Part shown: positions 24,862-26,169 of the stretch, one piece after another
Position numbering within the stretch: the first letter of the stretch is position 1
Layout: each line of letters starts with the position of its first letter
From: Candidatus Saccharimonadota bacterium
GTDB lineage: Bacteria; Patescibacteriota; Gracilibacteria; BD1-5; UBA6164
Direction: 5' to 3'
NCBI GenBank assembly: GCA_004563595.2
Contig: CP042461.1
Coordinates: 810,001 to 842,000, forward strand
DNA: 32,000 bases
The notes under the pieces: model-generated
Seen by the model: only the letters and a program-made list of their open reading frames with translations
What the model was told of the DNA's origin: nothing
Databases searched by the model: none
Made by a program: the position numbers and the translations under genes

Positions 24862-26169
24862 TTATTTATTAATAATTTTTGCTAAATCAATTATTTTATC
24901 AACTGGTAAATTGATTTCTTTGTCAGGATAAACTTTATCAAAGACTACATTTGCAACATTATCGTAAAATCTCCCTTTATCCATATCTTTTCATGTATCT
25001 GATCTTATTGCAGAAAATCAATGTAATAATGCAATTTTATTACTGTTTTCTATTCTAAGTTTTTTAGATTTTGAATATTGATAAATTGAAAAATAAAGAA
25101 AAGATGATAATAAAATTCATAATGGCAATAAAATAAATTTTAAATCTCAAGTAAGTATTGAATTTTCAGGCTCAGGAATTAAATATAAAATATTTGTCAA
25201 AAAAATAGAAAAAAGAAGAATAATTCAAAAATCTAATAATACCTTTTTAAATATATGAAAAGAATTAAAAATTAATATTCATATATTTTTAAATAATATT
25301 TTAAAATTTTTTAAGGTTTTGACATAAAGAGACGACTTTTTATTTTTATATAATTTTATATATTCTTTTCTTTTAATTTTATAACCATCTCATTTAGTAA
25401 ATATTCATATAATTGTTCCTATTATTAGTCATATAATTGCAATTAAAATAATTATTAATATTTTAGGCATATATTTAAAAGCAATTATATCTAAAATTGG
25501 TACAAATAAATATAAAAATAATCCAAAAAATATCATAAAAGAAATTAGAAGCCATCTTTTTTCTTCAAGTAAAAATTGTTCTTCTAGTTTTTCAAAACTT
25601 TGAGTTAGTATATTGGTTTGTTTATCAGATGTACTTTTTATAACTTCATTTTTTTTCTTAACAACTGTTTTTAATTTTTTATTTTCTTCCTCTAATTTCT
25701 TTTTTTCTTGGTATTTATTATAATCATCATCTGTAAGAATTATATTATTTAATTGTTCTTGAGAAAAAATATTAGTATTATAATCGGCTCATCTAAAATC
25801 CGCCCCTTCTAAAATAGCTCATTTAAAGTTAATATTTCATAATTTTATATTTCTAAAATCAGATTCTTCTAAATCTGAATTTTTGAAAGAAAAAGCCCCA
25901 TTATATCATATTGAATCAATTCAATTTTCGAAAATTGATCCTGAAAAAAGACTAAATTGTAAATTTCTATTTTCAAAAATAGTATTAATAATATTATTTG
26001 TTTTTTCATTTTCAGTATCCTTTCATTGAATCCAATTTCAGAAATAATATCAACTAAAATCATTATCTAAATTTTTAGCTCACCTTAAAAGAAGAAGATG
26101 ATTTTTTATTTTTTCCTCTATTTCCTCTTGTGTTATAAAAAGCAATTCTTGTTCCTTCTTTTTTACCAT
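24862..26169 (-). CDS. Pentapeptide-repeat / coiled-coil / multi-pass (about 4 TM) membrane protein embedded between hsdS and hsdR, 435 aa
   Basis: ATG 26169 (16 nt after the hsdS stop) to TAA 24862-24864 (27 nt before the hsdR ATG); I scanned all 435 triplets and found no TAA or TAG. Residues ~75-135 are pentapeptide repeats: NRNLQFSLFSGSIFENGIDSIGYNGAFSFKNSDLEESDFRNIKLGNINFKGAILEGADFRGADYN. A K/E-rich coiled coil follows. The hydrophobic helices are WLLISFMIFFGLFLYLFVPIL, ILIIILIAIIGLIIGTIIGIF, FGIILLFSIFLTNILYLI and FILLPLGILLSSFLYFSIY. A soluble tail of about 60 aa ends the protein. The track ORF 25869..26063 is in the wrong frame. Confidence 0.85.

Follow-up and report, generated by a model that had tools for sequence, protein, structure and literature searches.

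The operon and its genetic code

We examined gene X, which occupies positions 26169-24862 on the minus strand of a 32,000-nt stretch of contig CP042461.1 (positions 810,001 to 842,000; this whole stretch is called the window below). X encodes a pentapeptide-repeat protein with a coiled-coil stalk and a transmembrane (TM) part, and it lies within a type I restriction-modification (R-M) operon. Our analysis of its architecture, its relatives and their genomic surroundings makes it a plausible candidate for a phage-defence effector. The five genes of the operon are all encoded on the minus strand, in the order hsdM, PemK-like gene, hsdS, X and hsdR:

28272..29852, minus strand: hsdM, type I R-M methyltransferase subunit (526 amino acids (aa) under code 25; Pfam N6_Mtase 2.3e-114, HsdM_N 2.9e-19)
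27590..28168, minus strand: PemK/MazF-like toxin-fold gene (192 aa; Pfam PemK_toxin 1.3e-12 at residues 70-167; PHROG MazF-like growth inhibitor 2.3e-12)
26186..27412, minus strand: hsdS, specificity subunit (408 aa; two target-recognition domains; Pfam Methylase_S (PF01420) 3.3e-34, two stretches)
24862..26169, minus strand: X, pentapeptide-repeat/coiled-coil/4-TM protein (435 aa; code-25 translation)
21994..24834, minus strand: hsdR, EcoR124-type restriction/translocase subunit (946 aa; Pfam HSDR_N, SWI2_SNF2, T1R_D3-like and EcoR124_C)

The X frame contains 18 in-frame TGA codons and a single TAA stop, and its translation with genetic code 25 (TGA read as glycine) yields the 435-aa product. 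In the genes around X, TGA encodes the canonical glycines in the HsdR Walker A motif (TGSGKT), in HsdR motif III (FGFTGTP) and in the HsdM motif DPTCGSGS, and 86 of the 129 glycine codons in the operon are TGA. The NCBI collection holds a protein with 100% identity to the X product; it comes from Candidatus Gracilibacteria bacterium 28_42_T64, and the only name given for it is 'pentapeptide repeat-containing protein'. Genetic code 25 was adopted because the TGA positions fit canonical glycines and because the NCBI record uses glycine.

Two other codes were tried and rejected. Calling of open reading frames (ORFs) with translation table 11 gave no long ORF in the X region and was abandoned for code 25 after the TGA positions had been checked. 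Code 4, in which TGA encodes tryptophan, was discarded since the Walker A and methyltransferase motifs have TGA at positions where glycine is invariant and since the NCBI record has glycine. The window as a whole uses code 25, and ORF calling with table 11 breaks up every gene along its entire length (1-32000). In the databases, many X homologues are mistranslated and show W where the codon is TGA.

The first-pass annotation had described X as wedged between hsdS and hsdR, separated from them by 16 and 27 nt. Its position was confirmed, and both gaps are exact by coordinates: 16 nt from the hsdS stop (26186) to the X start (26169) and 27 nt from the X stop (24862) to the hsdR start (24834). 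For the translationally linked expression that it had proposed, the evidence goes no further than these short distances. The ATG start of X at 26169 agrees with the N-termini of its homologues, and X is probably co-transcribed with the R-M genes. What had to be corrected was the gene content, as the operon also holds the PemK/MazF-like gene between hsdM and hsdS. This gene has an N-terminal extension of ~70 aa, and no separate antitoxin ORF was seen with it in the window. HsdM, HsdS and HsdR all possess diagnostic Pfam domains and their catalytic motifs are intact under code 25; judged from its sequence, the type I R-M operon around X is apparently intact.

Architecture of X and definition of its family

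The protein was divided into the following parts:

25762..26142, minus strand: X residues 10-136, N-cap helix and pentapeptide-repeat beta-helix (~18 pentapeptides, ~4.5 coils; from PF00805, AF2 and Foldseek)
25555..25731, minus strand: X residues 147-205, K/E-rich stalk helix with the invariant F..EE..W at its juxtamembrane end (from AF2; invariant F192, F199, E202, E203 and W206)
25495..25551, minus strand: X residues 207-225, TM1 of the ancestral 2-TM module (from hydropathy; profile positions 2-65, common to 2-TM relatives)
25171..25482, minus strand: X residues 230-333, TM2, K/R-rich cytoplasmic loop (12 K/R) and TM3 (clade-specific insertion, absent from distant 2-TM members; identity 0.30)
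24985..25137, minus strand: X residues 345-395, TM4 and family signature LYFSIYQYSKSKKLRIENSNKIALLHGF (most conserved element; identity 0.68)
24862..24984, minus strand: X residues 396-435 and stop, conserved cytoplasmic tail (FYDNVANVVF ... NLPVDKIIDL; invariant V408, V409, F410, P422 and D424)

X matched the Pfam pentapeptide-repeat family PF00805 at residues 95-129 (29.4 bits, cut-off 20.2). This was the sole Pfam domain found, and F, L or Y occupies each fifth position across residues 65-135. The pentapeptide repeats reported by the first-pass annotation are therefore present, with a shift in position: the stretch it quoted, AFSFKNSDLEESDFRNIKLGNINFKGAILEGADFRGADYN, is located at residues 92-131, not 75-135. 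An AF2 model was run with a 24-sequence alignment. Residues ~10-150 were predicted with a local distance difference test score (pLDDT) of >90 as an N-cap helix followed by a beta-helix (~41-131). Foldseek comparison of the X model with the PDB returned pentapeptide-repeat proteins only, with MfpA as the best match (8e-4) and Qnr and Rfr also found. The prediction and these matches agree on a right-handed quadrilateral beta-helix, the fold originally proposed. The beta-helix is ~22 Å long, which corresponds to about half of one Qnr/MfpA monomer, and the net charge of residues 30-136 is -6, i.e., mildly acidic.

The K/E-rich coiled coil that had been noted was likewise recovered, as a single continuous predicted helix (147-229) that runs into TM1 and is followed by three more TM helices. 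Hydrophobic helices were located at residues ~207-225, 237-257, ~292-333 and 345-364. The loop between TM2 and TM3 contains 12 K/R residues and the two short loops contain 0-2. Under the positive-inside rule, hydropathy and this charge distribution indicate an N-in/C-in topology, in which the cytoplasm holds the N-terminal domain, the loop joining TM2 to TM3 and the tail at the C-terminus.

In a word-indexed search, 26 relatives of X were recovered. When a profile of the C-terminal 260 residues was run exhaustively against 1.84 billion representatives, no more than 70 clusters (50% identity) matched. Invariant positions lie almost all outside the repeat domain. They comprise F..EE..W before TM1, D227, P349, the pattern LYF...Y.....LRIEN.NK.A..H right after the last TM helix, VVF, and P.D in the tail; in TM4 and the C-helix of X, the invariant residues are L358, Y359, F360, Y365, L371, R372, I373, E374, N375, N377, K378, A380 and H383. 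Mean pairwise identity was 0.37 in the pentapeptide region, 0.30 in TM2-loop-TM3, 0.68 in TM4 plus C-helix and 0.61 in the C-terminal tail. The pentapeptide domain is the most variable soluble region of X.

In distant members of the family, the profile match is split into positions 2-65 and 139-234, and these proteins thus have only two TM helices. When the 4-TM clade was compared with the 2-TM relatives using hhalign, the probability was 100% (E 1e-40). Based on the split match and this link, the ancestral unit is a 2-TM hairpin preceded by a stalk helix and followed by a conserved helix in the cytoplasm, into which the X clade has inserted TM2-loop-TM3. The four hydrophobic helices and soluble tail of the first-pass annotation are thus present, and the reading of the four helices as one block gives way to that of a 2-TM module with a clade-specific insertion. 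The core of this family of inner-membrane proteins can be written as stalk helix, EE..W, TM, TM, amphipathic YQYSKxKxLRIENxNK helix and NLPIDK tail, with the two ends placed in the cytoplasm.

The N-terminal domain is swapped among 35 distant members: 11 have a strong pentapeptide domain, three have tetratricopeptide repeat (TPR) arrays, and the rest have another domain or nothing. From these comparisons the N-terminal repeat domain is exchangeable, and the part conserved across the family is the membrane module, not the repeats. The suggestion that the repeat domain of X acts as a DNA mimic found no support, given its ~4.5 coils, its net charge, its 37% identity compared with 68% in TM4 plus C-helix, and its replacement by TPR arrays or nothing.

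The 2-TM module appears to be previously undescribed. No match of the membrane module to PHROGs was above threshold; those of X lay within its pentapeptide repeats (five above E 0.01) or, with weaker scores, within the stalk helix, all to families of unknown function. The sole recurrent sub-threshold match of the 2-TM module was to NCBIfam NF041560, found in five of 16 members over profile region ~119-205 (best 21.6 bits, threshold 90 bits). Our search of the literature on pentapeptide plus TM defence proteins and on pentapeptide genes in hsd operons found no description of the X family. In the locus of the closest relative (L012, 3-1020), two extra membrane ORFs replace hsdS upstream of the X homologue. 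The first of these, which is truncated, encodes two TM helices plus AQFSNNKKLYEIYKFKAIAL and resembles the family module. We considered it as a paralogue of the module and set this aside as unproven (hmmsearch E = 0.028, hhalign probability 5.7%).

Genomic neighbourhoods and a possible role in defence

Exact-motif scans detected the family at five loci among 185,579 species genomes and at eight loci in a metagenome collection. Its spread is patchy and crosses phyla, including Gracilibacteria, one gammaproteobacterial record and one archaeal-looking contig. The latter (L020, P0070) encodes a member with a strong pentapeptide domain and carries eIF-1A and IF5A-type genes; it is probably archaeal, which would imply cross-domain spread of the module. 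No phage-encoded homologue of X was found in IMG/VR, and no flank synteny was shared between the window and the other loci.

The closest clade keeps the link to hsdR at three further loci, one of them with only an hsdR remnant. At L030/L031 (P0004, ~65% identity to X), the HsdS C-terminus is encoded upstream and the HsdR N-terminus downstream. At L012 (X 69% identity), hsdR starts 8 nt after the X homologue and its product is 82% identical over 159 aa. At L033 (P0005; 1305-1472), an intact X homologue stands upstream of all that is left of hsdR, ~50 nt of its 5' end with a 1-nt deletion/frameshift. Since the close homologue is intact after the loss of hsdR, the function of X would be autonomous. 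A dependence on HsdR is not supported by this locus, nor by the location of most homologues outside R-M loci.

Elsewhere, family members were found beside a variety of toxin-antitoxin (TA) and defence genes. A Fic gene adjoins one member (in the order Fic-X), and others lie beside a HigB/Gp49-like toxin with an HTH-Panacea antitoxin and beside an AAA_15/AAA_21 ATPase with an EcoRI-methylase-like gene. PemK is upstream of the member in L009/L022, and at L027 it is 5 nt downstream, followed by a DUF4238 gene. Together with the PemK-like gene in the window operon, these solitary PemK genes near X homologues make up a recurrent pairing. At L019 (8001-10634), a pentapeptide-rich member is separated by 7 nt from a gene for the defence protein ApeA (HEPN); gyrA ends ~1 kb upstream of the member at this locus. 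The TPR-fused member of L036 (951-13542) is situated in a dense defence island with DarT-Macro, NYN and GmrSD on one side and an N6_N4 methyltransferase, RelA_SpoT and ResIII/RE_endonuc on the other. In the larger loci, TA/defence genes directly adjoin the family member and are not scattered along the contig.

As to whether orthologues are scattered with no link to R-M or defence loci, the answer was mixed: the closest clade keeps hsdR and many members are beside toxin or defence genes, while four follow dnaK and about six are in housekeeping surroundings. The overall picture is that of a rare, patchy, horizontally mobile gene with a tendency towards TA/defence neighbourhoods.

GC content at third codon positions was 0.09-0.13 in the five operon genes and 0.14-0.20 in the flanking chromosomal genes. 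The lower value in the operon suggests that it was acquired horizontally as an island, X included. The flanks consist of ordinary chromosomal genes (SulP, ABC-F, pilin-like proteins, DUF2461, ADH, SelO and HD). A promoter/terminator scan gave no usable signal, the DNA being AT-rich (78 sites found, 77 expected). Just downstream of the operon are a SelO protein adenylyltransferase gene (4e-124; 19093-20616, minus strand) and a DUF1801 gene (20617-20946, minus strand), with the GTG start of selO abutting the stop of the DUF1801 gene. Further along, the gene at 9601-11835 (minus strand, 744 aa) encodes a type IV pilin-like N-terminal methylation motif (FTLVELIVVITILAILG) followed by beta-propeller-type repeats, with Pfam N_methyl and SBBP matches. 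The gene at 13062-14936 (minus strand, 624 aa) encodes, in a by-eye reading, a similar FTLVELIVVITILAILG-type pilin-like N-terminus and beta-propeller-type repeats.

Our tentative preference is for X as an autonomous, single-gene module of the conflict or abortive-infection type, combining a repeat sensor with a membrane effector and captured here in the position that PrrC occupies in the E. coli prr locus; we consider this quite possible, short of probable. The repeat domain would serve as a ligand- or protein-binding sensor, and the coiled-coil stalk and conserved C-helix would couple it to an oligomerising TM module. Once oligomerised, this module would perturb the membrane, e.g., by ion leak or depolarisation. 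Genes of this type would reside in defence/TA islands, and in the lineage of the window one of them would have been captured between hsdS and hsdR. The idea fits because the N-terminal repeats are variable, the TM module is conserved, the family is rare and patchy, and adjacency to TA, R-M and defence genes is recurrent. The first-pass annotation had also joined a sensor domain to a membrane effector, and the general idea agrees with the family-level evidence. What is established for X is its architecture, a predicted topology, the limits of its family and the genes with which it is associated; from these we infer membrane toxicity, oligomerisation, sensing and a defence role.

Several results weigh against the sensor-effector module. 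The case for an effector is built from architecture and guilt by association, and the TA/defence enrichment around the family is semi-quantitative, has no background rate and includes many short contigs. Searches with the membrane module found no Pfam family even at E<=10 and no NCBIfam family above threshold, X had 0 matches in PADLOC-DB 2.0 at E<=1, and Foldseek comparison of the isolated C-terminal model with the PDB and BFVD gave no match (best E ~6). AF2 confidence was moderate in the TM region (pLDDT 65-90) and low in the C-terminal tail. About six loci look like housekeeping contexts (L001, L003, L020, L024, L028 and L035). In addition, four independent homologues are directly downstream of dnaK on the same strand, at gaps of 51-174 nt (L004, L005, L006/7 and L023). 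This slot is often occupied by dnaJ. By gene order, the dnaK-linked loci are:

L004, 7014-10282, same strand as dnaK
L005, 7152-10261, same strand as dnaK
L006, 7938-11143, same strand as dnaK
L023, 2-1639, same strand as dnaK

These dnaK neighbours are the best support for the alternative that X is a lineage-restricted housekeeping or stress membrane protein (e.g., an envelope or proteostasis factor expressed with dnaK), with repeats that act as a generic protein-interaction scaffold and an incidental position in the R-M operon. We judge this to be rather unlikely, although the mundane reading remains plausible. It would account for the plainly housekeeping contexts of L001, L003, L020 and L035 and for the lack of a match between X and any defence-family model. 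Pentapeptide-repeat membrane proteins of unknown, non-defence function are common, and R-M and TA genes, being mobile themselves, could have arrived next to X by insertion. However, a housekeeping gene would not be expected to be so rare and patchy, to lack flank synteny between loci or to have its N-terminal domain swapped, and the nearest neighbours are repeatedly toxin or defence genes from many unrelated families in distant phyla. Even in two of the four dnaK-linked loci (L004 and L005), complete RelE/ParE-type TA pairs follow just beyond the X homologue, which suggests a variable hotspot rather than a chaperone operon.

The other two alternatives give the repeat domain a more specific task. 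X could guard or modulate the type I R-M enzyme of its own operon in the manner of PrrC. Its pentapeptide domain would act either as a DNA mimic on HsdMS/HsdR, for restriction alleviation or latency, or as a decoy that draws anti-restriction proteins of phages, and release from the enzyme would trigger the membrane module. PrrC is a precedent for a latent toxin embedded in an R-M system, X lies exactly in the hsdS-hsdR slot with its two short gaps, the arrangement is kept in L030/L031 and the X-hsdR link in L012 (down to ~65-69% X identity), and the beta-helix has the same fold as the DNA mimics MfpA and Qnr. Against this, most family members have no R-M neighbour, the homologue at L033 is intact beside its hsdR remnant, and the beta-helix is short, only mildly acidic and the least conserved soluble part. 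It is absent or replaced by TPR in homologues, and the Qnr/MfpA model scores are far below cut-off. We therefore regard such a guard as very unlikely. We give still less credence to X as a HalA-like ligand-gated ion channel. In that reading, a small signal (nucleic acid or nucleotide) bound to the pentapeptide 'crown' would keep the channel closed until a phage enzyme removed it. The nearest functional analogue in published work is HalA, a tetrameric effector that forms an ion channel and carries a cytoplasmic crown, and the NCBIfam HalA model was matched by four of the 35 distant members in the pentapeptide region only (best 8.2e-9, 35 bits). From these matches it follows that HalA, too, combines pentapeptide-type repeats with a TM domain. 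However, X itself had no such match, all family matches were far below the cut-off and left the TM module uncovered, the Foldseek search of this module against the PDB gave nothing (best E = 6), and no examined locus had an adjacent HalB-type nucleotidyltransferase.

A bolder version of the sensor-effector module would make the conserved QYSKxKxLRIENxNK module a new family of immune effectors that act on the membrane and take pentapeptide or TPR repeats as plug-in sensors. Among the Gracilibacteria members, the module would serve as a PrrC-like back-up to R-M and would depolarise the cell once its pentapeptide head is engaged, or the Hsd complex disabled, by DNA mimics or anti-restriction proteins of phages. 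We consider this combination improbable. If it were true, it would be the first mechanistically defined abortive-infection module in alternative-code bacteria of the candidate phyla radiation (CPR). X bears on the defence of ultra-small code-25 CPR bacteria, a little-studied subject, in a region where standard annotation offers just 'pentapeptide repeat-containing protein' and table 11 shows no gene. Should X be a defence effector, a new membrane module with no counterpart in Pfam, PADLOC or the PDB would join the sensor-plus-TM immune proteins, modular exchange of pentapeptide and TPR sensors would be demonstrated, and the logic of PrrC, in which a type I R-M operon harbours an accessory toxin, would have a second, structurally unrelated case. 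A dnaK-linked membrane protein would instead be of minor, lineage-specific interest.

Comparison with known systems

HalA, the effector of the Hailong anti-phage system, is a tetrameric transmembrane ion channel with a cytoplasmic crown that is gated by bound oligo-dA (Tan et al. 2025, summarised in PMC13434031), and it depolarises the membrane (PMC13434031). X resembles HalA in having a cytoplasmic repeat-type head and a C-terminal TM part. It differs in that it has no match to the HalA model NF051894 at E<=10 (cut-off 250 bits), and its conserved TM module and signature are not detectably shared. HalA was not among the PDB matches, either by sequence (for two family members) or by fold. A nucleotidyltransferase corresponding to the HalB partner was not adjacent in any of ~22 loci, and the neighbours in the window are hsdS and hsdR.

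In its position, X is like PrrC of the E. coli prr (EcoprrI) locus and like the rlo genes, being located between hsdS and hsdR in the same orientation and with close spacing. This PrrC-type position was found in the window and in L030/L031. A further shared feature is that homologues are also found away from R-M loci. Whereas PrrC is soluble and combines an ABC-ATPase with an anticodon nuclease, X is a membrane protein without an ABC-ATPase or anticodon-nuclease domain according to Pfam.

The repeat domain shares the right-handed quadrilateral beta-helix (PF00805) with Qnr, MfpA, AlbG and McbG, which were among the top Foldseek matches. These are soluble proteins of ~180-220 aa with 8-10 coils that form dimers mimicking ~30 bp of DNA. 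Unlike Qnr and MfpA, X has ~4.5 coils fused to a membrane module and is not strongly anionic, and its repeat domain is variable and dispensable within the family. X scored 18.7 bits with the Qnr model (cut-off 240), and the MfpA model was not matched at E<=10.

The predicted topology has a parallel in SLATT and other small TM conflict effectors (of the CBASS, retron and DRT systems), with which X shares a cytoplasmic helix, a 2-TM hairpin, a cytoplasmic C-helix, defence contexts and a presumed perturbation of the membrane. The SLATT relationship raised for the C-terminal module was not borne out, as the SLATT Pfam models matched neither this module of X at E<=10 nor 16 2-TM relatives at E<=1. 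X differs from SLATT in its distinct signature, and SMODS, SLOG or reverse-transcriptase genes were not seen in the loci examined. The 2-TM module also resembles NF041560 (T6SS_Burk_ExIF, a putative type VI secretion effector) through the weak recurrent match described above. This match was observed in 2-TM members, and we treat it as a lead only, the function of NF041560 itself being putative.

X is thus a genuine pentapeptide-repeat protein. It falls outside the Qnr/MfpA, HalA, SLATT and PrrC families, since defining features of each were looked for and not found in it. Repeat-sensor/TM-effector genes in defence islands and accessory genes nested in type I R-M operons are of known kinds; what is new is the definition of the family and the pattern of its genomic contexts.

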